A DNA stretch of 64,000 bases from Blastocatellia bacterium (GTDB lineage Bacteria; Acidobacteriota; Blastocatellia; UBA7656): contig CAVXWP010000009.1 of NCBI GenBank assembly GCA_963765495.1, positions 809,240 to 873,239 of the forward strand, read 5' to 3'. Positions 14,124-61,628 of the stretch are shown here, piece after piece. The notes under the pieces are model-generated. The model was not told the DNA's origin, did not search any database, and worked only from the letters and a program-made list of their open reading frames with translations. The translations under genes and the position numbers were made by a program. The first letter of the stretch is position 1. Every line of letters starts with the position of its first letter.

Positions 14124-14155
14124 TACTGAATCTCAGCACAAGAACTCTTCTTGTC

Positions 14156-14187
14156 GGCCCGTCCTCGAAAGGGGACGGGCTTTTTTG
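14156..14187 (+). terminator. Rho-independent terminator (GGCCCGTCC-tcgaaagg-GGACGGGC + TTTTTT)
   Basis: GC stem plus T-run directly after the receptor pseudogene. Confidence 0.75.
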
Positions 14188-14284
14188 GGTCTGTAGTAGA
14201 CCTCAATCAAGTAGACAGGGGATTTCAGGCGAGGCTTTCACTGTCTGAAGGTGTTTATGCTGAAGAATTACTGTGTGGAAAGGT

Positions 14285-17519: not shown

Positions 17520-17977
17520 TTGATACCTGTATTTGAAGTGATGTTAATTAATTCCCTAAATTCACTTGCCCTGGTAATTTATTGTGCGGGAAATGTTATC
17601 GCAGCCTATGAGGGGTGTCAAATGGGTGGAATACGTATGCCTCGCGTTTATGGTTGAATGAAATTTCCTCAACGATCTTGCCGGGAGCTGAGCTTTGGAT
17701 GGGACGCTACTTGACGAAACTGCTCCCGGCTAAGTAGAGTAAGGCGCACAGCAGGAATAGGACTGATAGAGCCTGTTTCATAATTCTGAGCGTCCTTTCG
17801 AATGCTAAAACCGAGAGTCGTTATGGACAGTTTTTAGAAACGAATGCATTGCTCCTCATCGGGCAGTGGAATTCCTGATCTGAAAATGCAAGAGTCTGTG
17901 GCAGGGCTCGCCGAGAAAACAGACCCGTTGCATCGGTGAAGTATGATCAATCGGGGTAATCAAGGGGTAGTTCCTTA

Positions 17978-18727
17978 ATGAACATCAATGAGTATGAAGA
18001 GATGTACAGGCTTGAGAATTTTTACTGGTGGTTTGTCGCCCGCCGAAAGTTGCTCAGACAATTAATCACGGAGATTGTCGGCAAACTCGATAAACCCGCT
18101 ATTTTGGATGTAGGTTGTGGGACCGGCATGAATTTTTCGATCCTCTCACAATTTGGAAATACCTTCAGCAGCGACGCATCGGAAGAGGCGCTTAAATTCT
18201 GCAAGTCGCGATCCATGAACGGCCTTGTTTGTTCCCGATCCGAAGCGCTTCCTTTTTCCTCAGAGAGCTTCGATATAATAACCGCGCTCGATGTGCTGGA
18301 GCATATTGATGACGATCTGAAGGCGATGGGAGAGTTGCGGCGCATCATGAAGAGCGAAGGGAGGCTGGTCATTACGGTTCCCGCTCACGGGTTTCTCTGG
18401 AGCGAACACGACGAAGCGCTGCATCACAGACGCCGCTACTCGGCTTCCGAACTCAGAAACAAACTGGTTGCTTCGGGCTTTAAGGTAGAGCAGATGAGCT
18501 ACTACATAACGATTCTCTTTTTCCCGATTCTCGTCATGCGTTTCCTTCAAAGCCTGCGAAAGAATTCAATCTATCCTAAGACATCTCACATCATCTTGCC
18601 GGGCTGGCTAAATTCTTTTCTGATAGGTCTGCTCGATTTCGAACGGATATTGCTCAAGTGGATTCGCCTTCCAATCGGCGTCTCGATAGTCTGCCTCGCA
18701 AGAAAAAGCGACGACCATTCTTCCTGA
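17978..18727 (+). CDS. Class I SAM-dependent methyltransferase
   Basis: LDVGCGTGMN motif I and DIITALDVLEHIDD motif. Confidence 0.8.
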   Translation: MNINEYEEMYRLENFYWWFVARRKLLRQLITEIVGKLDKPAILDVGCGTGMNFSILSQFGNTFSSDASEEALKFCKSRSMNGLVCSRSEALPFSSESFDIITALDVLEHIDDDLKAMGELRRIMKSEGRLVITVPAHGFLWSEHDEALHHRRRYSASELRNKLVASGFKVEQMSYYITILFFPILVMRFLQSLRKNSIYPKTSHIILPGWLNSFLIGLLDFERILLKWIRLPIGVSIVCLARKSDDHSS

Positions 18728-42059: not shown

Positions 42060-42389
42060 TTACTGGATGTGTCTTTCGAGAACTTCCGAGAGCACATCCT
42101 TGCTGACTGCGCCGACTACGCGATCCTCTTCTTTGCCGCCCTTAAACAGTATCAGCGTAGGAATCCCTCGCACGCCGTAGCGCCCCGCCGTTTCATGATT
42201 TTCGTCCACGTTCAGCTTTACGACCTTCGCCTTGCCCTGATACTTCTCCGCAAGCGCTTCAACGGTCGGAGCTATCATTCGACACGGTCCGCACCATGTC
42301 GCCCAGAAATCCACAAGTACCGGCTGCTCCGATTGAAGCACATCCGTTTCAAAACTGTTGTCGCTCGTGTCATTAACGTAATTGCTCAT
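42060..42389 (-). CDS. trxA: Thioredoxin
   Basis: WCGPC active site, about 109 aa. Confidence 0.9.
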   Translation of the reverse strand: MSNYVNDTSDNSFETDVLQSEQPVLVDFWATWCGPCRMIAPTVEALAEKYQGKAKVVKLNVDENHETAGRYGVRGIPTLILFKGGKEEDRVVGAVSKDVLSEVLERHIQ

Positions 42390-42457
42390 GCTTTGTCTCC
42401 TTACCAAATATTTGTAACTGCTTCTGCTACAGATCGGATCAAAAAAATTTCAGACCA

Positions 42458-42892
42458 TCATTTCTTTGACTTCGACTGCTTCCTGACGGATTCGAGTATT
42501 TCCTCAACCGTAATCTCTGATAAAACCTGTTCCATAGCCGTTTCGACTCTGCTTAACACATCACCGAGCACCGGCGCGATGTTTGCGCCTATGCGGCAGC
42601 CGGGGTCAGGCGGCTGCCGATGCAGAGAGAATATCTCTCCTCCTTCGACCGCCCTATACACATCGAGAAGGCTTATCTGGTTCGGAGCGCGGGTTAGCTT
42701 CGAGCCGCCGTATGCGCCCGTCTGCGATGTGATAAGCGAGGCTTTTGAAAGTGCCGACATAATCCGTCTTATTACAACCGGATTCGTGTTAACGCTACAG
42801 GCCATGTCTTCCGACTTTAATTGCTCATCGTCGTAATAAGCCATCAGCGCCAACATATGTACGGCCACCGCAAAACGACTGCTTCCTGACAT
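42458..42892 (-). CDS. Rrf2 family transcriptional regulator
   Basis: N-terminal wHTH AVAVHMLALMAY...VNTNPVVIRRIMSAL typical of Rrf2/BadM. Confidence 0.8.
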   Translation of the reverse strand: MSGSSRFAVAVHMLALMAYYDDEQLKSEDMACSVNTNPVVIRRIMSALSKASLITSQTGAYGGSKLTRAPNQISLLDVYRAVEGGEIFSLHRQPPDPGCRIGANIAPVLGDVLSRVETAMEQVLSEITVEEILESVRKQSKSKK

Positions 42893-43254: not shown

Positions 43255-44307
43255 ATGGCGACAACCGAGAGTGCTCAACTGTACTTCAAGCAAGCCAAAA
43301 TGATCGGGCCGGTAGTATCGAATCCGCCGGTCTGTTTGTATCTGGAAACAACCAACCGATGTAATCTGCTCTGCCAGCACTGCCCTCGCACATTTGCTTC
43401 GGTCGAGCGCCCGGCCGATCTTTCATTCGAGCAGATGAAGCTGATCGTCGAACAGGTGCCCAACCTCAAGCAGGCAGTTCTACACGGCATCGGCGAGCCG
43501 TTAATCAACAAAGAATTGCCCGCTATGATCAGCTATCTGAAGGAGCGAGGCGTCTATGTTCTGTTCAATTCCAACGGCACGATGCTCTATCCGCACATTC
43601 AGAGACAGTTGATTGACAGCGGTTTGGACGAGTACCGCGTATCGCTCGACGCAGCGGACGCGAAAACATTCGCAAGGGTTAGGGGGCTTCCCCGTTTCGA
43701 TCTGATTGTCAAAAACGTGCGCGAGCTTGTTGCGCTGAAGAAGCAACTTGGCATAGAGCATCCGCGCCTGTCGCTCTGGCTTGTAGGGATGAAAGAGACG
43801 CTCGCCGAGCTTGTGGCCTTTGTCCAGCTTGCCCACGATATGGGCGTAGGCGAAGTCTATTTGCAGAGGCTGGTTTTCTTTGACGACCAGCAGAACGGGC
43901 AAGGGTTTGCCCGACCCGACCAGGCGCTTTTCGGCACGGTTGATGAGGAAGAGGCGCGATTGATTGCCGAAGCCCATATGATAGCCGATGAACTGGGGGT
44001 GACGTTTCACGCATCGGGGGCGACTACGCCAGAGCAAAGCCTGATGCCCCGCGACGATGATCAGCCGTGGAATCTGTGCCGACGCCCCTGGACGTTGATG
44101 TACATAACGGCTAACGGCAATGTGCTGCCGTGCTGCATTTCGCCCTTCGCCGAACGCGATTACGATTCGCTCATTTTAGGCAATGCGTTCGAGCAGCCTC
44201 TGATGGACATATGGAATGAACATCTCTATCAGAAATTCAGAAACGATCTTCAAAGCGATCACCCGCACAGCGCGTGCAAAAACTGTGGCGTGCGTTGGAG
44301 CCTGTAG
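43255..44307 (+). CDS. Radical SAM protein with C-terminal Cys-rich (SPASM-like) domain
   Basis: CNLLCQHC (Cx3Cx2C) near the N-terminus; C-terminal CRRPW...CCISP...CKNCG cysteine cluster. Confidence 0.8.
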   Translation: MATTESAQLYFKQAKMIGPVVSNPPVCLYLETTNRCNLLCQHCPRTFASVERPADLSFEQMKLIVEQVPNLKQAVLHGIGEPLINKELPAMISYLKERGVYVLFNSNGTMLYPHIQRQLIDSGLDEYRVSLDAADAKTFARVRGLPRFDLIVKNVRELVALKKQLGIEHPRLSLWLVGMKETLAELVAFVQLAHDMGVGEVYLQRLVFFDDQQNGQGFARPDQALFGTVDEEEARLIAEAHMIADELGVTFHASGATTPEQSLMPRDDDQPWNLCRRPWTLMYITANGNVLPCCISPFAERDYDSLILGNAFEQPLMDIWNEHLYQKFRNDLQSDHPHSACKNCGVRWSL

Positions 44308-44361
44308 TCGGTGAGCCCTTTAACACGCCGGGCACGACCCTGTAAAACAGGAGATGATTTG

Positions 44362-45189
44362 ATGAGACGAGTGTTTGTGATGGCAACGATGATTTTGGCG
44401 GCTTTGCCAATCGTTGCTTCGAGTCAGACAAAGACCAGACGCCCGCGCCGCAACGTGCGCCCCGGCCTGAGCCTGGAGCAGACCCTGAAGAAGATGGAAG
44501 GCGAATTGTTCGAAGCCTTCAAACAGCGCGACCGGGCGGCGCTTGATCGGTTGATGACCCCGGATTACATGGCCACAAATCAGGACGGGTCGACGAGCAA
44601 TAAGGCGGAGACTCTTGAGGCGTTCAAAAACGACGCGGTTTCAATCGAGTCATTCGAGACCGAAGATGTTTTGGTGCGCCCTTTGGGAAATACGGCCATC
44701 ATAACCGGCCACTCCAGGTGGAAAGGCCGCAGAGGCGGACAAGAAGCAAGCGGGCAGTTTCGCCATACAGGAGTGTGGGTCAAGCGTCAGGGGCGATGGC
44801 AGATCGTGTCGTGGCAAGAGACAGCGATAAAGGAACGAGCCGTGATCGGGAAGGAAATCACTACACCTACGGGGTTGAAATACATCGATCTGGTCGAAGG
44901 CACGGGAGAGAGCCCAAGACCCGGTCAGATGGTCACGGTAGATTATACGGGCACGCTCGAAAACGGAGAAAAATTTGATAGTTCGCTTGACAGAGGCCAG
45001 CCTTTGATTTTTCAGATCGGTGTCGGGCGCGTTATCAAAGGGTGGGATGAAGGCGTTATGAGCATGAAAGTAGGCGGCAAACGCAAGCTCATCATACCCG
45101 CGCAACTCGGCTATGGGGAGAGGGGCCGGGGCATGATTCCGCCAAACGCGACTTTGATCTTCGAGGTGGAATTGCACGGAGTGAAGTGA
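44362..45189 (+). CDS. Secreted DUF4440/SnoaL-like domain fused to FKBP-type peptidyl-prolyl cis-trans isomerase
   Basis: C-terminal FKBP motifs ([47 protein letters not shown]). Confidence 0.8.
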
Positions 45190-45237
45190 TTTGAGATTTG
45201 AAATCTCAGATCTGCTTACCCGGATTGAAGTTTTGCC

Positions 45238-46236
45238 ATGAGTGGGGAACATAAACACGAGCACAAACACTCTCACGGTTCAGCAAACAACCGGCGCAGA
45301 CTCTCTGTTGTGCTCGCGCTCACATTCCTTTACATGCTGGCGGAGGCAATCGGCGGGTATTTAACAAATTCGCTCGCGCTGTTGTCGGACGCGGGTCACA
45401 TGATGACCGACGTTGCCGCGCTCTCGCTGGCGCTGCTCGCGTTATGGTTCTCGACTCGGCCGATCACACCAAAGAAGACATACGGCTATTACCGTATGGA
45501 GATACTTGCGGCGCTCGCAAACGGCGTGGGTCTTGTAGTCATTTCGCTGCTGATTTTTTACGAAGCTCTGCATCGCATCAAACAGCCTCCGGCAGTCGAA
45601 GGTTTCGAAGTGACGCTGATCGCGATTGGAGGGCTGGCAATCAACGGAGTGAGCGTGTGGATGTTGCACGCGGCGTCTGCGGAAAACCTCAATATGCGCG
45701 GCGCGTTTCTGCACGTCATCAGCGATGCGCTCGGCTCGGTGGGTGCAATCACGGCGGGGCTTTTGATTTGGCTGAAGGGGTGGACGATCTCCGATCCGAT
45801 TATAAGCATCGCCATGTGCCTGCTTATAATCTACGGCGCGTGGCAACTCATACGCGAATCGGTAAACGTTCTGCTGGAAGGAACGCCGTCTCATATAAAC
45901 ATACTCGCGGTCATAGAGGCCATGCACGAAATCGAAGGCGTCACAAGCGTACACGACCTACACGTATGGACGATCAGTTCGGGCAACGAAGCGCTTTCGG
46001 TTCACGTTACGATTGAGCCGGGCGCATCGCACAAGGAAACCCTCGAAGCGCTTCAGTATAGGCTGCGATCAGGGTTCAAAATAGGACACCTGACCATACA
46101 GGTGGAATCGCCGGACGAGCCGGTTGTGGACAACGTCAAGCTTTACAAGATCAACCCAAGGAGCGAAACCTACACGGATGCGCCAAGCACTAGCGGTAGC
46201 CGCAAAAGCGCCGCAGCCCGGAACAGTAAAGACTAG
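45238..46236 (+). CDS. Cation diffusion facilitator family transporter (CzcD/ZitB-like)
   Basis: His-rich N-terminus, six TM helices, HMMTDVAALSL and HVISDALGS motifs. Confidence 0.85.
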   Translation: MSGEHKHEHKHSHGSANNRRRLSVVLALTFLYMLAEAIGGYLTNSLALLSDAGHMMTDVAALSLALLALWFSTRPITPKKTYGYYRMEILAALANGVGLVVISLLIFYEALHRIKQPPAVEGFEVTLIAIGGLAINGVSVWMLHAASAENLNMRGAFLHVISDALGSVGAITAGLLIWLKGWTISDPIISIAMCLLIIYGAWQLIRESVNVLLEGTPSHINILAVIEAMHEIEGVTSVHDLHVWTISSGNEALSVHVTIEPGASHKETLEALQYRLRSGFKIGHLTIQVESPDEPVVDNVKLYKINPRSETYTDAPSTSGSRKSAAARNSKD

Positions 46237-46885
46237 GCTGCACTCACTTCTTTCCATTGACGACGCGACCGAATTGTATCGCTGCTTTCTCAAAGATACT
46301 CTTGCGCTGATGGAAAGCGTCCCCGAAACCGAAACCGTGATATCTTACACGCCCGCCGGGGCCGAACACCATTTTGAAGGAATAGCCTCAGGCAACCATC
46401 GCCTCCTGCTGCAACGCGGCGAGAGTTTTGGAGACAAGCTCTATCACGCGCTCGCGGATTTGCTGAGAGAAGGGTTCCGAAGCGCCGCCATTATGGACGC
46501 CGACAGCCCGACTTTGCCTCCCCGGTATCTGGCGCAGGCATTTGAAGAACTGGCGCGACCGGGCGACCGCGTAGTCCTCGGCCCCGCCCTGGACGGAGGC
46601 TATTACCTTATAGGGATCAAGCAACCACACAGACAACTCTTCGAGCGAATAACATGGTCGACCGAGATGGTTCTCGCCCAGACCATCGAGCGCGCAAGAG
46701 AGATAAACCTCGAAGTGTCGCTGCTTCCCGAGTGGTATGATGTAGACAACGTCACCGAATACGAGCGACTGATGGAAGAGATAAAAACCGCCGCAAACGA
46801 AAGGACCGACTTGAACGGGTTTGCGGCAAATACCCGGCGTTTCATCCTGTCGCGCCGGTCGCAATATCAGGCAGACGGGAAGTAA
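46178..46885 (+). CDS. DUF2064 family transferase (TIGR04282-like, rSAM/selenodomain-associated transferase 1 family)
   Basis: N-terminus ALAVAAKAPQPGTVKTRL is the hallmark of DUF2064; overlaps the CDF 3' end by about 59 nt. Confidence 0.6.
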   Translation: MRQALAVAAKAPQPGTVKTRLHSLLSIDDATELYRCFLKDTLALMESVPETETVISYTPAGAEHHFEGIASGNHRLLLQRGESFGDKLYHALADLLREGFRSAAIMDADSPTLPPRYLAQAFEELARPGDRVVLGPALDGGYYLIGIKQPHRQLFERITWSTEMVLAQTIERAREINLEVSLLPEWYDVDNVTEYERLMEEIKTAANERTDLNGFAANTRRFILSRRSQYQADGK

Positions 46886-48456
46886 TGACAAGTCATTCGA
46901 AGCTCTTGCCAGGCGGTGTCGAGCGAGAAATGCTGACCTTCATAATATTCAAGGTCTCGCTTGTCGCTCTCGGCATTTTGAGCCTTGCGCTTTATCACAT
47001 CAGCGCGCCTCTTTACCGCTATTCGCCGGGCAACGTAACCTACATCGCCACCTTTATCGGCCAATTCGCGTTTTACCTTCTGGCCTGTTACGCGGTTACT
47101 CGCTTTCGCGCAACAGACGCGGCCCGCAATTTATCATCGGTCACGATTTTCACGCTGATGATAGTGCTGATGTTTGCGGCGGCTTTTCGCGCAAGGCTTG
47201 TGACCGAGCCGCCCTTCCTGTCGAGCGATGTTTACCGCTATATCTGGGACGGTCGCGTGCAGGCATCGGGCATCAACCCTTACCGTTACATTCCGGCAGA
47301 AGAGGAACTGGCTCCTCTGCGAGACGACCTGATCTATGCCAACATAAATCGCAAGGATTTCGCGCATACGATCTATCCACCCGTAGCGCAGGCGATATTT
47401 TTGGCCTCATACCTTGTACGGCCATCGAGCGTGACGACATTCAAAGTAACGATGAGTTTGTTTGACGCGCTTGCGGCGCTGGCCATAATGCTTGCGCTTG
47501 CGCGGGCAAGGATGGACCCCGCGCTTGTCATCTTTTTCGCATGGCATCCACTGGTAATCTGGGAAGGCGCGCACAGCGGTCATATCGAATCGGCAAGCAT
47601 GGCGTTTCTGGCGCTCGCGCTTCTCTGTTGGACCTATGAAAAACGCGCTCTTACCGGCGTAGCCCTCGCGCTCGCAACCCTGGTCAAACTCTATCCGATC
47701 ATGCTGCTGCCGGTGTTTGCCGCGGCGAAATTGCCGCAGGGGCCAGCTTCGCAGGGGCCAGCTTCGCAGGAGCCAGGGGCCGGGGGCCAGCTTCGCAGGG
47801 GCCGGGGGCCGGGGGCCGGGGGGCTGGGGGCTGGGGATGAGAAGAAAGCTACAGGCAAGAAAATTGACCTGATAAACCTACTGGCCCCCGGCCCCCGGCC
47901 CCTGCTCCATCTGGCAGCTGCATTTATCCTCACGATCATAATCGCGTATCTGCCTTATCTGAGCGTAGGCGCGAAAGTGATAGGATACCTGCCGGGATAT
48001 TTGAAAGAAGAAGGATATATGCACGCCGGGAATCGCTATTTTCTGCTGAGCCTCGTGCGATGGTTTGTCCCTTTGCCGACTGCCGCATACTCTGTTTTTT
48101 CGGCCCTCGCTCTACTGGGGTTCGGCGTGTGGCAGCTATTGAAACCGAAACGCAACGTTACGGATGTCGCTCGCGGAGCCGCTCAGTTGATAGGGCTTTT
48201 CATGATACTCAGCAGCCCTCGCTATAGCTGGTATGTAGCGTGGATAATTCCATTTCTCTGCTTTGCGCCACGGGCGGCCTGGCTATATCTGACCGGCGCT
48301 TCGGTCTTGCTTTATCTGCTCTGGTTCACGACCGATTATCCCAATATCCCTTTATGGCTGGGCGCGGCGATTTATGTGCCGGCCCTCGCGCTGTTTATCA
48401 GGGATAGGGTCAAGATAAAAGTTGTGAAAGAGAAGGCAAGCGCGTCACAGGCTTGA
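46885..48456 (+). CDS. Polytopic membrane protein, DUF2029 / GT87-like glycosyltransferase family, with a low-complexity loop insertion encoded by a GGGGCC-type repeat
   Basis: Many TM helices; loop PQGPASQGPASQEPGAGGQLRRGRGPGAGGLGAGD...LLAPGPRP is encoded by repeat DNA at 47736-47902. Confidence 0.6.
   Translation: MTSHSKLLPGGVEREMLTFIIFKVSLVALGILSLALYHISAPLYRYSPGNVTYIATFIGQFAFYLLACYAVTRFRATDAARNLSSVTIFTLMIVLMFAAAFRARLVTEPPFLSSDVYRYIWDGRVQASGINPYRYIPAEEELAPLRDDLIYANINRKDFAHTIYPPVAQAIFLASYLVRPSSVTTFKVTMSLFDALAALAIMLALARARMDPALVIFFAWHPLVIWEGAHSGHIESASMAFLALALLCWTYEKRALTGVALALATLVKLYPIMLLPVFAAAKLPQGPASQGPASQEPGAGGQLRRGRGPGAGGLGAGDEKKATGKKIDLINLLAPGPRPLLHLAAAFILTIIIAYLPYLSVGAKVIGYLPGYLKEEGYMHAGNRYFLLSLVRWFVPLPTAAYSVFSALALLGFGVWQLLKPKRNVTDVARGAAQLIGLFMILSSPRYSWYVAWIIPFLCFAPRAAWLYLTGASVLLYLLWFTTDYPNIPLWLGAAIYVPALALFIRDRVKIKVVKEKASASQA
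47736..47902. repeat. GGGGCC/GGCCCC palindromic element (15-bp tandem CAGGGGCCAGCTTCG x3, then GGGGCCGGGGGCCGGGGGCC... / GGCCCCCGGCCCCCGGCCCC arms) embedded in-frame in the DUF2029 gene
   Basis: Read directly; same family as 26766-26947. Confidence 0.7.
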
Positions 48457-48516: not shown

Positions 48517-49326
48517 ATGCCTACTTTAGATCAGGAATTTGACTTTGATTTCAACGAGCGATCCCTCGAAGGCCGGGTGATTTTAGTGGCGGGCGGAACA
48601 GGCGGTCTCGGAAGCGCCACGGTCGCATTGCTCGCGCGCGAAGGTGCTCAGCTCGTAGTCGGATATTGCAGCAACCGCGACCGGGCAAGGGCGCTCAAAC
48701 AGGTAGTCGAAGCCGCATACGATACTACTCTTCATCTGGTTGAAGGAGATATTTCCGATCCCGACCAGCGCAGGCGTTACATCGAAACAGCCGACCGGCT
48801 AGGAGATGGCCTCTATGGGCTGATCTGTTTCACAGGCGACCCGGCTCGCGTGAAATTCGAGGAGATGACCGATGAAGACATGCAGGCTTCGATGGAAGAG
48901 AATTACATCGCGCCCGTGTTGCTTGCGCGGCAGGCGGCTGAGAGCATGAAGCGCCGGGGCCAGCAGGGCGCAATAGTGTTGACTTCGACCATGCAGGCAG
49001 TGGCGGTCTTTGAATCGAGTGTAAATTACGCAGGGCCGAAAACGGCTCTGATACAGGCAGCACGCATAATGGCCAAGCAGGCGGGCGGGCCCGCCGACAT
49101 TCGTGTGAACGTGATAGCGCCCGGGGTCAATCGCGCAGGGATGGCGATGAAGTCAATCGAGTCGGGCAAATATGACTTCTTCATCGATCAGGAAGTCATT
49201 CCACGCTTCGGTCGCCCCGAAGATATTGCTCGCGTCGTGCGCTTGCTCGTCGAGCCTGATAATTACATAACCGGCCAGGTAATCACCGTAGACGGCGGGC
49301 TGACCCTGCGGCGAGATCGTGGATAA
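48517..49326 (+). CDS. SDR family oxidoreductase
   Basis: AGGTGGLGSA cofactor motif and SDR fold. Confidence 0.8.
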   Translation: MPTLDQEFDFDFNERSLEGRVILVAGGTGGLGSATVALLAREGAQLVVGYCSNRDRARALKQVVEAAYDTTLHLVEGDISDPDQRRRYIETADRLGDGLYGLICFTGDPARVKFEEMTDEDMQASMEENYIAPVLLARQAAESMKRRGQQGAIVLTSTMQAVAVFESSVNYAGPKTALIQAARIMAKQAGGPADIRVNVIAPGVNRAGMAMKSIESGKYDFFIDQEVIPRFGRPEDIARVVRLLVEPDNYITGQVITVDGGLTLRRDRG

Positions 49327-49379: not shown

Positions 49380-50957
49380 ATGCGAATTAATTTTCGGTTT
49401 TTCAACAAGAGTGTAATCACGAGCCTGATTCTGATTGTGGCCGTTTCCTGTATGGGGGCGCAGCAGAAGAGTGTCCGGCAATCGGCTCTGACCCGGAGCA
49501 GGCAGGCGACTCTTGATCATATCTCCGCTTCGTCGCTCGAAGGCCATCTGTCATTTATCGCCTCTGACATGCTCGAAGGGCGCAACACTCCATCAACGGG
49601 GCTCGATACTGCCGCTCTGTATATTGCCGCGCAGTTTCGCCGCGCAGGTCTCGAACCCGCGGGCGATGATGGTTATTTTCAAACGGCCAACTGGCTTGTT
49701 TCAGAGCGTACGCCTGATGGGTTTGAGCTAAAGTTTGATACCGGGAAAGAGACTATCAAGGTCGATAAGGATCGGGTGAGCATTTCTCTTAATCAGGCCC
49801 TCGATCTTTCGCGCGCTCCTTTGCTCAAGGTGAATTATGAAGATTCTGCGGCTATCTCGGCGCTTGGCGTTGATGCGCAGGGAAAGGCGATACTGACCGA
49901 GATACCCGATTTTCGCAAAGCAGACCGTTCTCGACGGGGCGAACTGTATCAGGCCAGAAGCCAGTTCATGAGGAAGATGGGAGAGGTTAAAGCGGCTGTG
50001 ATTATTTCGATTGACCGGAGCAGTCCGACCGGCACAGGCCCCGCGTCCAGCCGGTTGATAGACCCCGAAAACCGCCGAGATATCGCTTCAACCGCTTCAA
50101 CGCCTTTCATCACCGTTCACGATCCGGCAGTAGTAAAAATGTATGACTCGATGGCATCTGCATCGAATACGGGTACGGTCTCTATTCATCTTGCCGCGCC
50201 TGACGAGCACCCCGTCAAGCTGCGCAATGTCATAGGCATCCTGCGCGGATCGGACCCGCAGTTGAAAGATACTTATGTGCTGGTCACAGCGCATTACGAT
50301 CATATTGGCGTGGACCCGAGTCTTCCGGGCGACAAAATATTTAACGGCGCGAACGATGATGGGAGCGGCACGGTTTCGGTCATCGAGATAGCATCGGCCC
50401 TGGCCACGCTGAAGGCGCGACCAAAACGGACCCTTGTTTTTATGACCGTCTTTGGCGAAGAGAAAGGGCTGCTCGGCTCGCGTTATTACGGACGGCACCC
50501 GATCTTTCCAATCGAGAAGACTGTAGCCGACATCAATCTTGAACAGGTAGGCCGCACCGACAGCACCGAAGGGCCGCAAATCGCTAATGCCTCGCTGACG
50601 GGTTTTGATTATTCCGATGTAGGGGAGATTCTGAAACAAGCCGGCTCGCTTACAGGCATCACCGTCTATAAGCATGCCCAGAATAGCGATGCCTATTTTG
50701 GCCGCAGCGACAACCAGGCGCTTGCCGATCAAGGTGTCCCCGCTCATACGCTGTGCGTGGCTTTCGATTACGCCGACTATCACGGCGCGGGCGATCACTG
50801 GGAGAAAATAGACTATGCAAACATGGCTAAGGTAGACCGCATGGTAGCTCTCGCGCTCATAATGATTGCCGATAGCCGGGACGCGCCAAAGTGGAATGAA
50901 GCAAACCCAAAGACCGCCCGCTATGTGAAGGCATGGCAGGAGCACCACGGGAAGTAA
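49380..50957 (+). CDS. M28 family peptidase (secreted aminopeptidase)
   Basis: NVIGILRGSD, VLVTAHYDHIG, GANDDGSGTVSVIE and FGEEKGLLGSRYY motifs. Confidence 0.85.
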   Translation: MRINFRFFNKSVITSLILIVAVSCMGAQQKSVRQSALTRSRQATLDHISASSLEGHLSFIASDMLEGRNTPSTGLDTAALYIAAQFRRAGLEPAGDDGYFQTANWLVSERTPDGFELKFDTGKETIKVDKDRVSISLNQALDLSRAPLLKVNYEDSAAISALGVDAQGKAILTEIPDFRKADRSRRGELYQARSQFMRKMGEVKAAVIISIDRSSPTGTGPASSRLIDPENRRDIASTASTPFITVHDPAVVKMYDSMASASNTGTVSIHLAAPDEHPVKLRNVIGILRGSDPQLKDTYVLVTAHYDHIGVDPSLPGDKIFNGANDDGSGTVSVIEIASALATLKARPKRTLVFMTVFGEEKGLLGSRYYGRHPIFPIEKTVADINLEQVGRTDSTEGPQIANASLTGFDYSDVGEILKQAGSLTGITVYKHAQNSDAYFGRSDNQALADQGVPAHTLCVAFDYADYHGAGDHWEKIDYANMAKVDRMVALALIMIADSRDAPKWNEANPKTARYVKAWQEHHGK

Positions 50958-51404: not shown

Positions 51405-52043
51405 ATGCAGCTATTGCTTGCAGTGCTCATAGAGTTCTGGAGTCTCCTCAGAAAACTCGGGGGGCTTGGCCTGATCCTTATGGGTTTTCTTGACAGTTCC
51501 GTCATTCCAACCCCGGGCGGGTTGGATTTGCTGACCATCGTGCTTGCGGCGGGGCAAAAAACCTGGTGGCCTTATTATGCCGCGATGGCTGTTGCCGGGT
51601 CGGTTATCGGCGGGTATCTGAGCTATGAACTTGGGCGCAAGGGCGGTGAAGAGGCCATTGAAAAAAGAATGTCCAAAAAGAAATTTGACCGCGTATGCCG
51701 AGCCTTCGAGAAATGGGGATTCGGAGCCGTCTTTGTACCCACGATCCTGCCTCCCCCTTTTCCGATAGGTCCGATTTTTATGGGCGCGGGGGCGCTTGAT
51801 TATCCGCTCAAAAAATTCCTGCTCGCGCTCACCGCAGGCCGCGTCATCAGATTCACTATAGTCGCTTACATGGCTTCAAGATATGGCCAGTACGTAATAA
51901 AGTTCTTCTCAGATAATTACGTGATGATACTCCTGATAATCGCGGGGCTGACGGCAGCAGGAGGCTTAGCCTTTTTTCTTTTCCGCTCACACGACAAACA
52001 AACCAAAAAGAAAGCGTCCGATGCCACGGCAAGCGGAGATTAA
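51405..52043 (+). CDS. DedA/YqaA family membrane protein
   Basis: GFLDSSVIPTPGGLDLL motif and 4-5 TM helices. Confidence 0.7.
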   Translation: MQLLLAVLIEFWSLLRKLGGLGLILMGFLDSSVIPTPGGLDLLTIVLAAGQKTWWPYYAAMAVAGSVIGGYLSYELGRKGGEEAIEKRMSKKKFDRVCRAFEKWGFGAVFVPTILPPPFPIGPIFMGAGALDYPLKKFLLALTAGRVIRFTIVAYMASRYGQYVIKFFSDNYVMILLIIAGLTAAGGLAFFLFRSHDKQTKKKASDATASGD

Positions 52044-55333: not shown

Positions 55334-57460
55334 TTAGTCGCCAAAACCGGCTCTCTCCTCCTGCGCCTGCCCCTTCCCCTTGCTTCCCATCTGCACCAGC
55401 TTCCCTTCCACCTTCGGCCCTACTCCCAACTGTACCAACTTCGCCTCCGGCTCCCCGCTCTCTTTCAATACGTGCTGCCGGTACAACTTCGCCATCCTCA
55501 AGTTCTCCGCTTCGCTCAACTTCGCTGCCCTCGCCCTCTGCTTCTCTTCCCTCGCCGTCTTCGCTATCCCTAACTCGTCCAGGTCGTGTTGCACTTCCCT
55601 CGTGATTATCTCTTCCTTCAACACCAGATTGTGCTCTACACTGTTTAACTCTACTGCTCTCCCTCCCGCAAATATCTCGTGCCTCCCGTACTCCTCATAC
55701 CACTTCGTCAAACTCGCCGTCATGTGCATCTTCTCTACTATGTTCCTCCACCCTATCCCCGTGTTGTATGCGCAGAAACTTATCTCCCCTTCCTGCGTCG
55801 CATACGGGATTATGCACCTCTCCGTCCGCCGAAAATCATAGTTGAACAAATCCTGAAACCACATCCCCGCTATGAACAGGAAGTTCCACCTGTCTGCTCT
55901 CCTCTTCTCTATGTCTTCCTTCGTCCGGTCTCCTGAAACCTTCCCATAATTCTTCCCCGTCGCTCCCCACGTCTTGTCAAACTTCGTCAACAAATCCTTT
56001 AACTTGAAATGCGTCGGCGACTGGTACGGGTCGTAGTTCTTCATCAAGGCCAGGGCCATCCCCACTATCGACAGCCACTTCCCTCTCCCAGCATCGTTGA
56101 CCTTCATCACATCCTTCGCCAACTGCTCCCCGTCCAAAAACGCCGTCACTGGCACCGACTCCTTCGTCTCCTTGTCCACCATGATCGCCATACCTACTCC
56201 ACAATTCGGATGGCATCCACAACTCAACTGCCCCCAGTCCGCCTCTGGCCCGTGCACCAGATCCGACCAGTCTGAAAATGTGCTCATAAACGAGATCGGA
56301 AACCAGTCTCTCACTGGCTCTCCCAGCCCCGTCTGTTTCTTCACATCGTGCGCCAGGTGCGACAGCGTGTATCTCTGCGCCATTCTCCGCTCGTCCGTGA
56401 TCGCCTCATCTCGCCCCGTGAACGAAACGGGCTGGAACGACAAAAACGAGGTCTTCTTTGGATTATCTAGCGCAAACTGGATTATCCGCCCCACCTGCTC
56501 GTTGTTTATCCCGTTTATGATCGTTGTCACTGGCACAATCTCCACTCCCGCGCTGTGGAGGTTCTCGATTGCTCGCAACTTCACATCAAAGAGGTTCCCG
56601 ACTTTTCTGTGCTCGTTTGCAGCGTTGCCGATCCCATCGAATTGCAGATACGCATATCTCAGCCCCGCTTCTGCCGCTTGACGCGCAAACTCGGCGCTCT
56701 TTGCAAACTCTATCCCGTTTGTAGCCGCCTGCACGCTGTTGTAGCCAACCTTGCGTGAATACCTGACGGCATCCAAAAAGTAGGGCGAAAGCGTTGGCTC
56801 CCCGCCCGAAAACTGAACGCTCAACTGGCGGCGGGGCTTGATAGAAATCGCGTTGTCGAGCATGGTCTTGATGTCATCCCAGGTGAGTTCGTGAACAAAG
56901 CCAACCTGATTGGCATCCATAAAACAGGGGTCGCACATCATGTTGCAGCGATTTGTGAGATCTATCGTAAGGACAGAGCCGCGCCCGTATTTTATGGTAG
57001 AAGAGCCGTGATCGTGAAGGGTCTCGTCGTTGTGAGCGCGGATGTCAGAGCCAGGAAAGACCTGTTCAAGGTGTTTGAAGAAATCGGCGTCGATAGCCAT
57101 GATGTCTTCGAAGTGGCCGTGTTTAGGGCAATCCTTGACCATGAGGATATTGCCGTCGCGTTCGATGATCTGGGCCTTGATTTCGCCGATGCGTTCATTT
57201 TTGAGGATATCGACGGGAAGAATGCCGTCGAGGACCTGCTGGCGGATTTCGGGAACGCAGCGAGGGCAGAGGGAATCGGTAGTGCGAGGCCAGCCGAGAG
57301 GAGGCTTGACCTTCTGATAGGATTTCAAGAGAGGCTTATCGCTCCAGGCAGGAGTGAAGGAGGGATTCTGTTTGATGCGATTGAATCTCTCGAACAGGGC
57401 CCAGGAGCCGCGAGCGGCCAAGGTCAATCCTTTTTCAACATACTTTATTGGCTTGTGCAT
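55334..57460 (-). CDS. Large radical SAM protein (708 aa) with N-terminal Cys/His zinc-ribbon-like motif and long C-terminal extension; family not recognised
   Basis: TIDLTNRCNMMCDPCF (Cx3Cx2C), upstream CPRC...CPKHGH, additional CGCHPNCG cluster, Lys/Glu-rich tail. Confidence 0.75.
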   Translation of the reverse strand: MHKPIKYVEKGLTLAARGSWALFERFNRIKQNPSFTPAWSDKPLLKSYQKVKPPLGWPRTTDSLCPRCVPEIRQQVLDGILPVDILKNERIGEIKAQIIERDGNILMVKDCPKHGHFEDIMAIDADFFKHLEQVFPGSDIRAHNDETLHDHGSSTIKYGRGSVLTIDLTNRCNMMCDPCFMDANQVGFVHELTWDDIKTMLDNAISIKPRRQLSVQFSGGEPTLSPYFLDAVRYSRKVGYNSVQAATNGIEFAKSAEFARQAAEAGLRYAYLQFDGIGNAANEHRKVGNLFDVKLRAIENLHSAGVEIVPVTTIINGINNEQVGRIIQFALDNPKKTSFLSFQPVSFTGRDEAITDERRMAQRYTLSHLAHDVKKQTGLGEPVRDWFPISFMSTFSDWSDLVHGPEADWGQLSCGCHPNCGVGMAIMVDKETKESVPVTAFLDGEQLAKDVMKVNDAGRGKWLSIVGMALALMKNYDPYQSPTHFKLKDLLTKFDKTWGATGKNYGKVSGDRTKEDIEKRRADRWNFLFIAGMWFQDLFNYDFRRTERCIIPYATQEGEISFCAYNTGIGWRNIVEKMHMTASLTKWYEEYGRHEIFAGGRAVELNSVEHNLVLKEEIITREVQHDLDELGIAKTAREEKQRARAAKLSEAENLRMAKLYRQHVLKESGEPEAKLVQLGVGPKVEGKLVQMGSKGKGQAQEERAGFGD

Positions 57461-57622
57461 AACTATCTCCTAGTAATGTGCGAAGCCTCAAAAACATATT
57501 TCCAACTTCGCTGTTGCTGTCAGAATTTAAGCACAGCGGATCAACCGGATAACCGCTTCCCGATTGCGCCAGTGCCTGGCAAATACGTTCGTCCCCGAAT
57601 CGAAAAAAGCTCCGGCGAAAGC

Positions 57623-57904
57623 TCAAGCCAGATATTCGGCAAGCTCCCGCTCAAGTTCTTCCGGGCCGACCTGCTCACCCCGATTAAGCCGGTCCAGAGT
57701 GCGATCAATTACGGCCTTCGCTTCATCCTTGTGGTCCTCACTCAAGAACCCATCGAGGAAATGATCCCCCGCGAGGGCGTGGTTGATCTCCGATTCCTTG
57801 TTGTGCTCGTCCAACTCCGTGAAGTAGACAACCTTGTATTTGCGGTTGTAGCTGGCTTCACGATAAACCTCAAACATTATCTTTTCCGAATTTCGCATAC
57901 TCAA
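57623..57904 (-). CDS. Hypothetical small protein
   Basis: 93-aa ORF downstream of the activase operon. Confidence 0.4.
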   Translation of the reverse strand: MSMRNSEKIMFEVYREASYNRKYKVVYFTELDEHNKESEINHALAGDHFLDGFLSEDHKDEAKAVIDRTLDRLNRGEQVGPEELERELAEYLA

Positions 57905-57907
57905 AAC

Positions 57908-58002
57908 GTGACCAGTGACGCGTGATTCGTGAAAAGGGAATCAACTGATGACGATTCGGGTCCCTGAAAATCACGCATCACGCGTCACTGGTCACGAATC
58001 AC
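57908..58002. repeat. Heptamer-repeat hairpin element: arms GTGACCA-GTGACGC-GTGATTC-GTGA and TCACGCA-TCACGCG-TCACTGG-TCACGAA-TCAC
   Basis: Read directly; about 25-bp arms, about 38-nt loop. Confidence 0.7.
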
Positions 58003-58006
58003 TTTC

Positions 58007-61000
58007 CTAGTCTCCCGAAGCGCCTATCTGATACTGTGGCACATTGCCTGAAAGCACGGGCAGCGAAATAATTGAACCTCGCCGCGAACTGGCTTTCTCT
58101 TCTGCCTCGGCCTGCAATCGCAGAAGACGCTCGAATTCGGCAAGCTTCTCTTCCAGCGTCCTTACCTTGCCTTTGTTCTTGATCATGTCTTCACGATAGC
58201 GCTTGAGGAAATAACCTATCGTCTCGACTCTGATCTTGATAGAGCCGGTCGGTTTATTTTCGTCTATGTCCTTGAAGCAGAAGTAAGGCGTACCCGCATT
58301 CTGAACGGTCTCTTCGACCACGGTGTAAATCGGCGCGTCGTGGCCGCATTTGAACGACGAAAGCTCCAGCGCTACTAGATTCGGATGGCGCGCCGTGTAT
58401 TTCGCGGCCCAGATCTTGCGGCTGGTGTTTTCCGAATAGGAATTCTTCCACGCATCCTGAATGTCCATCGGATGCTTGATTATTCCCGCCCGCACTTCGT
58501 CGCCAAACAACCGCCACAGTATGTCGTCATCTATCGGCAGCGAGTCCATAGTAAAGACCGGGTATCCAAGCTTCTGGAACTCTTCAAGTATCTCGTGATT
58601 GATGCCCGGATCGTTATGATAAGGACGACCAAGCATCACGACTCCAAGCCCGTCTTCGGCTTCGAGTTTTTCGAGCACCTCGCGGCCCGCGCCGCGCAGC
58701 GTCACATTATAGAGAGTATCGAGCGCCTTGAATCCTTCTTCGATGGCCCGATGATTCTCCTCCTGCGTGAGACCTAGCAGGTCTTTGAATACTTCATACA
58801 TCTGCTTTTCAAGCAGTGGCGGCTCATCGAGATTCAGAATCGGGTCAAGGTATCTGGTGCCCAATTGCGCAAACAGATCGCCCTCTTTGATGAATGCCGC
58901 CTTGACCGCTTCGGGCGTTGCCGTGACGGTAGGGCATGCGCGGCTGCCCTGCGTGTTGACAAGATCGGTGGGCAGAGCGTCTATCATCGGGAAGAAGATA
59001 AAATCGAGCGGCTTCTTTTTGTGATGAACCTGGAGCAGGTTGTGAACGTGCGGTATGCCCACCTTTGACGGGAAGCACGGATCGATGGCCCCGCGTTTCG
59101 CGCCTTCTTTGTAAAGCTGCTCGGTTGTGTAATCGGAATAAACCAGATTCTGCGGTTTGACTCCGAGGCTTTCAAAGTAAGCCGAAACAAACGGATTGAT
59201 CGAATACTGATTAAGAACGCGCGGAATGCCTATGCGCAGGGACTCGCGTTTCTTGAGCAATTCGTTGCGCTGTTTCTGCGACTTTGTGAAAGCATATTTA
59301 TGAGCCGGGTCCGCCACCTTCTGCGGATTGTAGCTGCGCCATGCGGCTTTGGCCGCGATCTCGACAAAGTTCGGATTTGCGGACTTCATCGAATCGAGCC
59401 CCTTCTTGATGACCCGCATATCGGCCACGTCTTCGACCAGCCCCTTCTCGCAAGAGTTGCCTACGATAAGGCGCTGCACGCCCGGCAGGATCGGAATCTT
59501 CGATTTGCGCGGCGGTTCGGTGCTCTCTTTATCCGACACCTTCACGTCAATAAAGGTGCGCAGACATTTGTTCTTGCAGAAGTAACACCTGGTGTCCTCA
59601 TTGCGATGCGTGACATAGGTGATATCCTCGACGCTCTTCAATCCGATAAAGCTTGTCCGGCGACCGTTTTCCCAGAGTCTTACCGCTTCGATTGCAGCCC
59701 CAATCGCGCCCGATTCGCCGCAGTGCTCGTGGACTATGATTCGCGGCTGGATATCTTTGCCCTTAAAGCGCGACTCGATAAAATCAACCTGAGACTTGAC
59801 CGCCGCGAGGTTGTGCTGAGTGCCGCCCTGCAAGACGAAGTTTGTACCGAGCGCGGCGATGTTTGGTATCTGCGAAACATAGAGCCAGATGTTTTTCGGA
59901 AGCACGGCGGCAAGACCCGCCATGATCTCTTCGGGCTTCCAGCCCTGTCGCTGAAAGTCAACAATGTCGGATTGCATAAAGACCGCGCATCCGTAACCGA
60001 ACGTGGGCATCGCCTGCGCGCTGAAGGCTATGTCGGCGTACTGCTCTACCTGCATGCCAAAACCTTCGGCCGTCGATTGCAGGAAGTAGCCGTTTCCAGC
60101 CGAGCATTGCGTGTTCAATTTGAAGTCTTTGACCTGACGATTCTTCAGGATTATCAGCTTGATGTCCTGTCCGCCCACGTCAACGATCACATCCACATCT
60201 TTGTAAAACTGCAAAGCGGATTCGGTATGCGCGACCGTCTCGACTAAAGCGACATCGGCGTTGAGCGTGTCTCTCAAAATGTCTTTTGCGTATCCGGTAG
60301 TGCCTACGCCGAGTACGTTGAGAGTTGCGCCCTGATCGGTTACCTGCTTTTCGAGTTTGCCGAAGACTTCCATGGTGTCTTCTATCGGGTTGCCTTTTGA
60401 CAGTTGATAAGTCTTCACAAGAATCTTGCGGTCCTTATCGAGCAGCACGGCTTTCGTAGAAGTCGAGCCGCCGTCCAGACCTATGAAACCTTCAACGACC
60501 TGCCCCGGTTCAAAAGTGGCGGGCGTGAACTTCTTGCGCTTGTATCTCTCCTTGAATTCCAGCAGATCCTTTTCGTCTTCCGACAGTCCCTTTCCTCCGG
60601 CCTTCTTCTTCTCTTCGATGCGACCGTAGGTGATGTAATACTCAAGATCGGCAGTGCCGCGATAAACGCCTATACTATCGTCTTCGGACTTGCCGAATTC
60701 GACAGCGCCGAGTGCCGCGAAGTACTGCGCGTTTTCCGGCACTTTTATCAGGTCTTTCGGGTCAACCCCTTCGGGCAGCGGATAGTTGCGCTCTTCCCAC
60801 ACCTTCGGGATATTGGACTTCCAGCCTTCGACCATGCCCCGGATGTATGTATTGGGACCGCCAAGCAGCAAAACGTGCGGGCGCAGGGTGTTGCCTCGCG
60901 TAAGCACGGCGAGGTTCTGGCCTATGATCGCTTCAAACAGCGAGGCCATAAGCTCAGAAGGCGGCACGCCCATTTTCTGAAGCGAGTTGATGTCGGTTTC

Positions 61001-61543
61001 GGCAAACACGCCGCACTTGCCCGCTACCGGATGGAGCTTTATATCGTAGTAGCCCATGTCGCAGAGCTTGTCGGGCGGGATGCGGAGTTTGGCGTTGATC
61101 TTATCGATGACCGCGCCGGTTCCGCCCGCGCATTTGTCATTCATCGAAGGGATTTTTTTCTTCTTGCCGGTTTCCGGGTCTTCCTTGAATATGATGATCT
61201 TGGCGTCCTGACCGCCAAGTTCGATGACCGAACCGGCTTCGGGGTAAAGTTTTTCGACCGCAAGCGATACGGCGTTGACCTCCTGCACAAACTTGGCCCC
61301 GATCATGGTCGCAACGTTTCCGCCTCCCGACCCTGTGATGAATATCCTCACGTTTTCTTTGGGAATCGGGAAATCGGCTTCGATGCGCTTGAGGAATTCC
61401 AGGCATTTTTCGGGCTGTTTGGTATCGTGACGCTGATAATCCTGCCATAGGATTTCGTCTTTTACGGGGTCTACAACTACCGCCTTGACGGTCGTCGAAC
61501 CAACATCCAAACCTATGTATAGTTTTTCGTAGTCTTGACTCAT
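58007..61543 (-). CDS. Fused CoA-substrate-specific enzyme activase (two BcrAD/BadFG/HgdC-type ATPase domains) with C-terminal dehydratase-associated domain (YjiL/YjiM-like)
   Basis: Two acetate/sugar-kinase-fold ATPase domains (LDVGSTTVKAVVVD, GLDGGSTSTKAVLLD) and a long C-terminal domain; 1178 aa. Confidence 0.75.
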   Translation of the reverse strand: MSQDYEKLYIGLDVGSTTVKAVVVDPVKDEILWQDYQRHDTKQPEKCLEFLKRIEADFPIPKENVRIFITGSGGGNVATMIGAKFVQEVNAVSLAVEKLYPEAGSVIELGGQDAKIIIFKEDPETGKKKKIPSMNDKCAGGTGAVIDKINAKLRIPPDKLCDMGYYDIKLHPVAGKCGVFAETDINSLQKMGVPPSELMASLFEAIIGQNLAVLTRGNTLRPHVLLLGGPNTYIRGMVEGWKSNIPKVWEERNYPLPEGVDPKDLIKVPENAQYFAALGAVEFGKSEDDSIGVYRGTADLEYYITYGRIEEKKKAGGKGLSEDEKDLLEFKERYKRKKFTPATFEPGQVVEGFIGLDGGSTSTKAVLLDKDRKILVKTYQLSKGNPIEDTMEVFGKLEKQVTDQGATLNVLGVGTTGYAKDILRDTLNADVALVETVAHTESALQFYKDVDVIVDVGGQDIKLIILKNRQVKDFKLNTQCSAGNGYFLQSTAEGFGMQVEQYADIAFSAQAMPTFGYGCAVFMQSDIVDFQRQGWKPEEIMAGLAAVLPKNIWLYVSQIPNIAALGTNFVLQGGTQHNLAAVKSQVDFIESRFKGKDIQPRIIVHEHCGESGAIGAAIEAVRLWENGRRTSFIGLKSVEDITYVTHRNEDTRCYFCKNKCLRTFIDVKVSDKESTEPPRKSKIPILPGVQRLIVGNSCEKGLVEDVADMRVIKKGLDSMKSANPNFVEIAAKAAWRSYNPQKVADPAHKYAFTKSQKQRNELLKKRESLRIGIPRVLNQYSINPFVSAYFESLGVKPQNLVYSDYTTEQLYKEGAKRGAIDPCFPSKVGIPHVHNLLQVHHKKKPLDFIFFPMIDALPTDLVNTQGSRACPTVTATPEAVKAAFIKEGDLFAQLGTRYLDPILNLDEPPLLEKQMYEVFKDLLGLTQEENHRAIEEGFKALDTLYNVTLRGAGREVLEKLEAEDGLGVVMLGRPYHNDPGINHEILEEFQKLGYPVFTMDSLPIDDDILWRLFGDEVRAGIIKHPMDIQDAWKNSYSENTSRKIWAAKYTARHPNLVALELSSFKCGHDAPIYTVVEETVQNAGTPYFCFKDIDENKPTGSIKIRVETIGYFLKRYREDMIKNKGKVRTLEEKLAEFERLLRLQAEAEEKASSRRGSIISLPVLSGNVPQYQIGASGD

Positions 61544-61628
61544 CGTCTACTCCAACTCTTTCTTTTCGTCGTTCATTGGCCGGTGGCCAGTCGTTATTCA
61601 CAACCGGCCACCGAACACTGACCACTGC

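Follow-up and report, generated by a model that had tools for sequence, protein, structure and literature searches.

The 64-kb stretch of a Blastocatellia genome analyzed here (contig CAVXWP010000009.1; hereafter the window) raises the question of whether three of its genes form one system, and if so, which one. They encode a radical S-adenosylmethionine (SAM) protein (R), a DUF2064 protein (D) and a GT87/DUF2029-like membrane protein (C). A first-pass annotation, made from the DNA sequence without database searches, had tentatively assigned R and D to the rSAM/selenodomain group, with the link weakened by two intervening genes. Comparison with relatives revealed that the window holds a rearranged, Blastocatellia-type copy of a conserved cassette, D-C-R-G2, where G2 is a soluble family 2 glycosyltransferase (GT2). 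In the literature searched, this cassette is so far undescribed and has no described function.

Conservation of the D-C-R-G2 cassette

The scan of relatives covered one genome per GTDB species and returned at least 572 relatives of R, from which the best 80 loci were kept. All counts refer to 84 sources with an R homologue (R identity 53–100%), the window included, and L-numbers denote the relatives' loci compared with the window. All open reading frames (ORFs) neighbouring R were clustered without bias and then recounted with hidden Markov models (HMMs). The exact order D>C>R>G2> on one strand was found in 63 of the 84 sources, and by the HMM recount, 78 of them have G2, 76 have C and 73 have D, whereby most of the exceptions were contigs ending inside the cassette. 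The median gaps between the HMM envelopes were 14, -10 and -14 nt, and in a Terriglobales genome (R identity 58%) DUF2064, GT87, R and GT2 are four overlapping genes. Overall, the R, D and C families were adjacent in 63–78 of the 84 sources, from several phyla, and this grouping is far beyond chance. The linkage of radical SAM, DUF2064 and DUF2029/GT87-like genes suspected in the first pass was therefore borne out, as the three are adjacent and co-oriented in almost every relative.

The carriers belong to the Acidobacteriota, many Alphaproteobacteria, Gammaproteobacteria, Verrucomicrobiota and others, with labels including Blastocatellia, Acidobacteriaceae, Stellaceae, Hyphomicrobiaceae, Acetobacteraceae, Xanthobacteraceae, Beijerinckiaceae, Steroidobacteraceae, "delta proteobacterium", Actinomycetes and Ca. 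Udaeobacter. R comes from a large family conserved to an unusual degree, and within the cassette its conservation is the highest, with a mean pairwise identity of 67% vs. 41–55% for the others, and the pairwise identities of the four proteins correlate with each other (r = 0.74–0.92). Taken together, we consider it very probable that R, D and C are one functional unit. Two apparent features were discarded in the course of the comparison: a D-C fusion in L054, the assembly of which is ridden with frameshifts, and the neighbour cluster c29, a spurious antisense ORF.

All genes named in the first pass were found in the window at the positions given there, R with its Radical_SAM and SPASM domains and the DUF2064, GT87-like, FKBP, CDF, Rrf2 and thioredoxin genes, in the following arrangement:

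42060-42407, - strand: thioredoxin, divergent, upstream of R
42458-42892, - strand: Rrf2, divergent, upstream of R
43255-44307, + strand: R, radical SAM protein of 350 aa (Pfam PF04055 60.7 bits, SPASM PF13186 65.7 bits)
44311-45189, + strand: DUF4440/SnoaL-like and FKBP peptidyl-prolyl isomerase with an N-terminal hydrophobic segment (FKBP_C 122.9 bits, DUF4440 89 bits), the true start probably lying near 44362
45238-46236, + strand: CDF metal-efflux transporter, ZitB-like (TIGR01297 297 bits; Cation_efflux and ZT_dimer domains)
46124-46885, + strand: ORF of D, DUF2064/TIGR04282 (TIGR04282 172.5 bits, PF09837 100.6 bits), likely start at 46178 (MRQALAVAAKAPQPGTVKTRL)
46885-48456, + strand: C, GT87/DUF2029-like polytopic protein of 523 aa (PF09594 31.9 bits, cutoff 25; PIG-U 29.3 bits)
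48517-49326, + strand: SDR-family oxidoreductase (adh_short_C2 130.6 bits)
49380-50957, + strand: M28 peptidase, on the same strand after the SDR gene

Against the cassette HMMs, the window proteins scored 580.5 (R), 309.7 (D) and 493.1 bits (C), with all three genes on the + strand within 5.2 kb. The ATG of R at 43255 is backed by 43 aligned homologues beginning within a few residues of it. The likely start of D overlaps the CDF stop by 59 nt, an overlap of about the same length being present in L001, and the ATG of C overlaps the stop of D by 1 nt. From R through the M28 peptidase gene, seven co-directional genes follow each other with gaps of at most 60 nt or with overlaps. The best terminator-like hairpin on the + strand was placed only after the M28 gene, albeit the whole promoter and terminator scan performed at chance level. 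No Rfam families or tRNAs were found in the 64-kb window.

Rearranged forms are also carried by other Blastocatellia, and one relative in this class with 80% identity has the order of the window. The order R-FKBP-CDF-D-C-SDR occurs in the window, L001 and L087 (the latter with a 0.9-kb gap and no FKBP gene called), R-FKBP-CDF-D-C in L088, R-FKBP-CDF-D-C-G2 with a second C paralogue in L007, and G2-R-D in L089. Thus, six Blastocatellia contexts with differing flanks keep R, D and C in company (L089 being listed as G2-R-D), and their association persists through three gene orders within this class. The FKBP gene takes the same position in L001, L007 and L088, and the CDF gene in L001, L007, L087 and L088, while both are absent from the canonical operon. 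Judged by these comparisons, the two genes represent a Blastocatellia-specific insertion between R and D and therefore do not separate unrelated genes; contrary to the first-pass view, they leave the system unbroken. The Rrf2 and thioredoxin genes do flank R upstream and divergently, as the first pass had it, but they are not conserved neighbours. Since the genes upstream of R vary between the relatives (YcaO/nitroreductase or BshC instead of Rrf2/thioredoxin), their presence is incidental.

The SDR gene fills the slot after C which the GT2 gene holds in L007. Its orthologue follows C in L001 (76% identity, with a 20-nt overlap with C) and in L087, outside the canonical cassette, and the protein is possibly an accessory reductase in the sub-lineage of the window.

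Families and predicted folds of R, D and C

The radical SAM cluster motif of R, CxxxCxxC (C36, C40 and C43), is invariant in the family alignment of 44 sequences (the window and 43 homologues). C275, C293, C341 and C344 are the predicted auxiliary-cluster cysteines, C27 and C294 are conserved too, and the C-terminal tail CGxRWSL is invariant across the alignment; R of the window retains all of the cluster cysteines. With this motif and with PF04055 and PF13186 above their cutoffs, R belongs to the SPASM/twitch subgroup of radical SAM proteins, although the five conserved cysteines of its C-terminal domain (C275, C293, C294, C341 and C344) fall short of the full seven-Cys, two-cluster SPASM motif. 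The closest solved relative by sequence is BtrN, with 62.9 bits in two stretches. In the second of these, four BtrN cysteines, reported as the auxiliary-cluster ligands in the BtrN structure paper, align with C275, C293, C341 and C344. The alignment suggests that the C-terminal domain of R is BtrN-like, with a single auxiliary cluster. The AF2 model of R (pLDDT 78.7, pTM 0.84) matched SuiB, DesII, BlsE, SkfB, MoaA, PqqE, viperin and anSME with TM of about 0.6, and these predicted-fold matches confirm the SPASM/twitch class.

None of the curated NCBIfam models was passed by R. Its 25 best matches all scored below 140 bits, the weakest of them at 33.4 bits, and were headed by TIGR04317 (tungsten-cofactor oxidoreductase maturase, 139.6 bits vs. 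a cutoff of 380) and TIGR04311 (putative metalloenzyme maturase, 118.6 vs. 400). R therefore represents a family without a curated NCBIfam model. The 120 best database matches, 56–100% identical, came from Blastocatellia, Terriglobales, Stellaceae and "Deltaproteobacteria", and in public sources the homologues are named merely "radical SAM/SPASM protein".

D belongs to TIGR04282, as had been proposed in the first pass (172.5 bits vs. a cutoff of 134), and to PF09837 (100.6 bits); its orthologue in L005 scored 178.8 bits against TIGR04282. The fold is GT-A/nucleotidyltransferase-like, and the conserved motifs AKAPxPGxVKTRL, DSP, DGGYY and DxD resemble, by our own reading of the sequences, nucleotidyltransferase motifs. 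D of the window shows no deviation in any of the family columns with a conservation of at least 90%. In the PDB, it matched 3cgx, a "putative nucleotide-diphospho-sugar transferase", with 100.7 bits, and there was a weak match to CofC.

C passes the GT87 family PF09594, and its homologues carry PF09594 together with PF26314 (MptA_B_family). A sequence search of C against the PDB gave no match, and for this reason the predicted fold was needed. The AF2 model (pLDDT 84.2, pTM 0.86) had its top Foldseek matches in Dol-P-Man-bound GPI mannosyltransferase I, PIG-U, PimE, ALG3, STT3 and ArnT, and the predicted fold is thus of the GT-C type, apparently closest to polyprenol-phosphate-mannose-dependent transferases. 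In the model, the GT-C architecture is combined with an acidic motif in the first extracytoplasmic loop, D115-x2-R-Y-x-W-D122-G, located after the third transmembrane helix, with D115 and D122 conserved in at least 93% of 63 C sequences. C of the window retains all but two of the columns which are at least 90% conserved. The nearest structures, together with the ArnC/DPMS-like partner gene of the relatives, hint at polyprenyl-phosphate-mannose as a putative donor.

Some further features of C and its kin were observed. At 47735-47836, DNA repeated in tandem (periods 15 and 29 nt) encodes a Gly/Pro-rich insert (PQGPASQGPASQEPGAGG...) at about residues 285–330, of which residues 289–323 are disordered in the AF2 model; relatives of C are shorter by roughly the size of this insert (the L001 orthologue has 479 aa vs. 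523 aa). Blastocatellia hold many GT87-like paralogues at about 50% identity. In L007, two C paralogues flank G2 (13674-15146 on the + and 16816-18240 on the - strand), and C of the window is slightly nearer to the one on the opposite strand (54.8% vs. 49.9%). In the D-R-G2 loci devoid of C, G2 is followed by a 660- to 700-aa protein with 12–17 hydrophobic segments (L083:9661-11643; L081:12670-14763; L034:16218-18194). This protein matched none of the Pfam families, similarity to C was not detected, and it may be an alternative membrane transferase.

A glycosylation reading and its rivals

The best solved relatives of G2 are ArnC (74 bits), DPMS and GtrB, and AglJ heads its NCBIfam matches. 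The ArnC/DPMS/GtrB clade loads sugars on polyprenyl phosphate. A pair of GT2 and GT-C proteins is the hallmark of polyprenyl-phosphate-sugar glycosylation, and therefore we read the cassette as a lipid-carrier-dependent system for extracytoplasmic glycosylation, with R as the enzyme modifying either the sugar or the donor; the chemistry being an inference, we assign this reading a probability of about 0.5 at most. Starting from the observed membership of the cassette and from the family or fold assigned to its individual proteins, we infer an order of reactions, a substrate for R, an activity for D and an acceptor as follows. D would activate the sugar, acting as a nucleotidyl- or glycosyltransferase, and G2 would load it on polyprenyl phosphate, whereby the synthase would be encoded elsewhere in the case of the window. 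R would alter the nucleotide- or lipid-linked sugar by radical chemistry, i.e., by oxidation, epimerisation or a comparable reaction, and in the lineage of the window the SDR protein may complete the sugar change, by analogy with DprE1/DprE2. In the last step, C would attach the sugar to an acceptor of the envelope, beyond the cytoplasmic membrane.

Several known systems resemble parts of this scheme. BtrN, DesII and BlsE are radical SAM enzymes acting on carbohydrates; the first is the closest characterized relative of R by sequence, and the other two are among the top matches by fold. The radical SAM core is common to all of them, and BtrN and R seem, by their alignment, to share a short C-terminal domain with one [4Fe-4S] cluster. 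In contrast, identities are only 14–19%, R exceeds BtrN in length by about 100 residues, and it differs from the latter by the invariant CGxRWSL terminus and many conserved Arg residues. In mycobacteria, DprE1/DprE2 epimerise decaprenyl-phosphoribose by oxidation and subsequent reduction on its carrier, feeding GT-C arabinosyltransferases. The likeness is one of concept: R and the SDR protein of the window could act analogously, but DprE1 is a flavoenzyme, unlike the radical SAM enzyme R, and there is no homology between the proteins. The combination of a Dpm1/ArnC-like GT2 with a GT-C protein is shared with periplasmic glycosylation systems, such as GtrA/B/C, ArnC/ArnT, Ppm1/PimE and the polyprenyl-phosphoribose synthase-MATE-GT136 system, and the pairing of a lipid-linked donor synthase and a GT-C protein with auxiliary sugar-modifying enzymes is established (PMC11127046). 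Enzymes altering the lipid-linked sugar are thus a known feature of the three-component systems. The cassette differs from these in its radical SAM and DUF2064 core, in the lack of a recognized flippase and, as far as the window is concerned, in the lack of a GT2. To our knowledge, neither a radical SAM enzyme nor DUF2064 is known in the three-component systems.

A number of observations weigh against the glycosylation reading. The 84 sources do not count as phylogenetically independent. Neither G2 nor a remnant of it was found in the 64-kb window with the HMM at E ≤ 10 or with tblastn, and an adjacent G2 is likewise lacking in L001, L087 and L088, while it is present in L007 and L089; hence, either loading depends on a source elsewhere, or the Blastocatellia form has a different mode of action. 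Four or five loci have no C. No flippase was recognized, candidates for this role being the DoxD-like membrane protein present beside the cassette in 33 sources and, in the window, a DedA/VTT protein encoded 3 kb downstream of C. The fold search with R returned generic SPASM/twitch neighbours and pointed to no substrate class, and the top NCBIfam matches of R bear the computational names of metalloenzyme or tungsten-cofactor maturases. The only solved relative of D, 3cgx, is an uncharacterized structural-genomics protein. Furthermore, SelD, methyltransferase and second radical SAM neighbours hint at a heteroatom chemistry that the model leaves unexplained.

The DedA/VTT gene itself lies at 51405-52043 on the + strand (PF09335 61 bits; UptA 27 bits vs. 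a cutoff of 250) and is found downstream in L087 as well. The DedA family is implicated in polyprenyl-phosphate recycling, and for this reason the protein may be relevant, albeit its position may reflect close relatedness only.

The heteroatom hints are the basis of an alternative in which the cassette is the glycosyl-handling half of a selenium (or chalcogen/metalloid) small-molecule or glycolipid pathway, sister to the arsenosugar system. SelD would provide selenophosphate, the heteroatom group would be formed by methyltransferases together with a second radical SAM enzyme, and D, G2, R and C would link it to a sugar for delivery. Indeed, D belongs to the family that partners ArsS, and a SelD gene is present within 10 kb of R in 9 of the 84 sources, either alone or as a fusion with a pyridine-nucleotide-disulfide oxidoreductase (TIGR03169 465 bits; SelD 302 bits):

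L004:5438-6304: SelD near the cassette
L013: SelD near the cassette
L025:2544-4829: SelD fusion, directly 3' of G2 on the same strand and in the same operon
L030:12476-14836: SelD near the cassette
L036:12333-14684: SelD near the cassette
L040:17667-18716: SelD near the cassette
L049: SelD near the cassette
L050:12426-16190: SelD near the cassette
L069:12488-16216: SelD near the cassette

At the SelD loci, genes for a PhnD-type ABC transporter and a methyltransferase are often present as well, along with a second radical SAM gene of the SPASM type. Across all sources, recurrent neighbours were the DoxD-like membrane protein (33/84), a nucleoside-phosphorylase-like gene directly upstream of D (22/84), a pair of methyltransferase and second radical SAM genes (13/84) and the PhnD-type ABC transporter (13/84). 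In six sources, a PhnD-like binding protein and an Rv1681-family radical SAM gene (NF049973, 481 bits) stood near the cassette, accompanied in three of them by an acyl-CoA-dehydrogenase-like gene:

L021:3008-4048: acyl-CoA-dehydrogenase-like, PhnD-like and Rv1681-family genes
L035:12539-15598: the same trio
L084:11812-14988: the same trio

This trio corresponds to the Rv1679-Rv1681 arrangement of Mycobacterium tuberculosis. Overall, the SelD-linked neighbourhoods hint at selenium or another heteroatom in some versions of the cassette, and with its accessory genes the cassette looks like a sister of the ArsS system and not a member of it. Against a general selenium pathway, 75 of the 84 cassettes have no SelD within 10 kb, and the 64-kb window contains no DoxD-like gene, SelD, cassette-linked second radical SAM gene or nucleoside phosphorylase, nor any other of these accessory genes. 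Moreover, the nine SelD sources are nearly all Alphaproteobacteria, so that few independent events may be involved. On balance, this alternative appears unlikely.

According to a second alternative, R is a maturase of a protein or metal cofactor, its target being D, C or another enzyme, with the glycosyltransferases as clients or bystanders. The best NCBIfam scores of R, the presence of SuiB, SkfB and anSME among its structural neighbours, and the metal transporter and foldase inserted into the operon in this lineage can be quoted in its favour. However, the TIGR04317 and TIGR04311 scores are far below the cutoffs, these families are named computationally only, and their gene context differs from that of R. 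As the CxxxCxxC motif lies just some 25 residues from the N-terminus, R lacks an extension able to hold a peptide-recognition domain, and between the overlapping genes there is no space for a precursor peptide or another small conserved ORF; for both reasons, a peptide-maturase role of R is disfavoured. Also, the best solved sequence relative of R is a carbohydrate enzyme, and the CDF and FKBP genes are absent from the canonical operon. We therefore regard a maturase role as quite improbable.

The arsenosugar system, i.e., ArsS with its two transferases (TIGR04167, TIGR04282 and TIGR04283), is the interpretation that automatic annotation would suggest, the current NCBIfam name of TIGR04282 being "arsenosugar biosynthesis glycosyltransferase". 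There is a real likeness in the radical SAM protein with a Cys-rich C-terminus, the DUF2064 protein passing TIGR04282 and, in the relatives, the small GT2, a logic common to both systems. Yet the 25 best NCBIfam matches of R, all with at least 33.4 bits, do not include TIGR04167 (cutoff 300), TrsS gave 41.7 bits vs. a cutoff of 490, and the C-terminus of R is of the SPASM/twitch type, so the proposed membership of R in the selenodomain family was rejected. The expected "transferase 2" partner fared better in part: a GT2 follows R in 78 of the 84 sources, but the cassette GT2s scored 33–54 bits against TIGR04283 with its cutoff of 182 (L005 53.6, L004 51.1, L025 42.0 and L007 32.8 bits). The neighbours tested against TIGR04167 and TIGR04283 were representatives of the recurrent clusters. 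A second radical SAM protein near some cassettes was ruled out as ArsS (26.3 bits), the neighbouring methyltransferases that were tested all stayed below the arsenite-methyltransferase cutoffs, neither selenocysteine nor an arsenite methyltransferase was seen in the cassette, and, unlike the ArsS system, the cassette has a GT-C protein as a core member. We hold membership in the arsenosugar system to be very improbable. The partnership with TIGR04167 and TIGR04283 which underlies the arsenosugar name is thus missing here, the partner radical SAM proteins and GT2s failing both models; the radical SAM partner of D was non-ArsS in all contexts examined (the window, L005 and other loci), and the name is probably over-extended for this D subgroup.

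A coincidental neighbourhood of R with D and C in unrelated processes is scarcely credible: the unrelated FKBP and CDF genes between R and D and the uninformative promoter and terminator scans would allow for it, but the three families are adjacent across several phyla, usually in overlapping frames, and remain so through the three Blastocatellia gene orders.

The link suspected in the first pass thus persists as a real, conserved one around a radical SAM family that is unnamed and distinct from the arsenosugar/selenodomain one. Of the two findings which together were to speak against that proposal, a score of R below the family cutoff was obtained, whereas a loss of synteny between DUF2064 and radical SAM genes in the relatives clearly was not. 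In the literature searched, no mention of DUF2064 was found, nor of DUF2029 with radical SAM, no paper combined arsenosugar, ArsS and glycosyltransferase, the TIGR identifiers occurred merely within lists, and papers on selD, SelD fusions, selenium traits and radical SAM did not mention the D-C-R-G2 cassette. Tentatively, it is possible that the cassette belongs to an unrecognized pathway, a sister of the ArsS system conflated with it by annotation, in which a dedicated radical SAM enzyme would make a non-standard sugar on a nucleotide or polyprenyl-phosphate carrier, with a GT-C transferase installing it on the envelope; in SelD-linked genomes, this sugar may contain selenium or a different heteroatom.

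Other genes of the window and significance of the cassette

Two more radical SAM genes were seen in the window. One encodes a 498-aa B12-binding radical SAM protein (18973-20469, + strand) and is unrelated to the cassette. The other encodes a radical SAM protein of 708 aa that carries a zinc ribbon at its N-terminus, scores 318.9 bits against the tetraether lipid synthase Tes (cutoff 450) and 208.9 against TrsS (cutoff 490), and adjoins a 1178-aa BcrAD/BadFG and DUF2229 activase-like protein and a 600-aa protein without a family:

55334-57460, - strand: zinc-ribbon radical SAM protein
58007-61543, - strand: its neighbour
61629-63431, - strand: its neighbour

The region 55334-63431 is possibly a locus for membrane-spanning lipids of the brGDGT type. 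In addition, three paralogues of about 350 aa, with an N-terminal CarboxypepD_reg-like domain and TPR repeats, are encoded on the - strand at 8166-9245, 9387-10436 and 14285-15346, near a TonB-dependent-receptor-like gene (4721-7834).

As for the cassette, DUF2064, the R family and this GT87-like clade have no assigned reaction, yet they make up one of the more strictly conserved operons measured. Its carriers are hundreds of soil bacteria among the Acidobacteriota, many Alphaproteobacteria and other dominant soil groups, and with it DUF2064 acquires, besides that with ArsS, another context open to testing. An additional role of selenium might come to light in the SelD-linked versions. The cassette points to an envelope modification in poorly studied soil bacteria and, if the glycosylation reading is true, a radical SAM enzyme inside lipid-carrier glycosylation would be a new combination of two well-known biochemistries.

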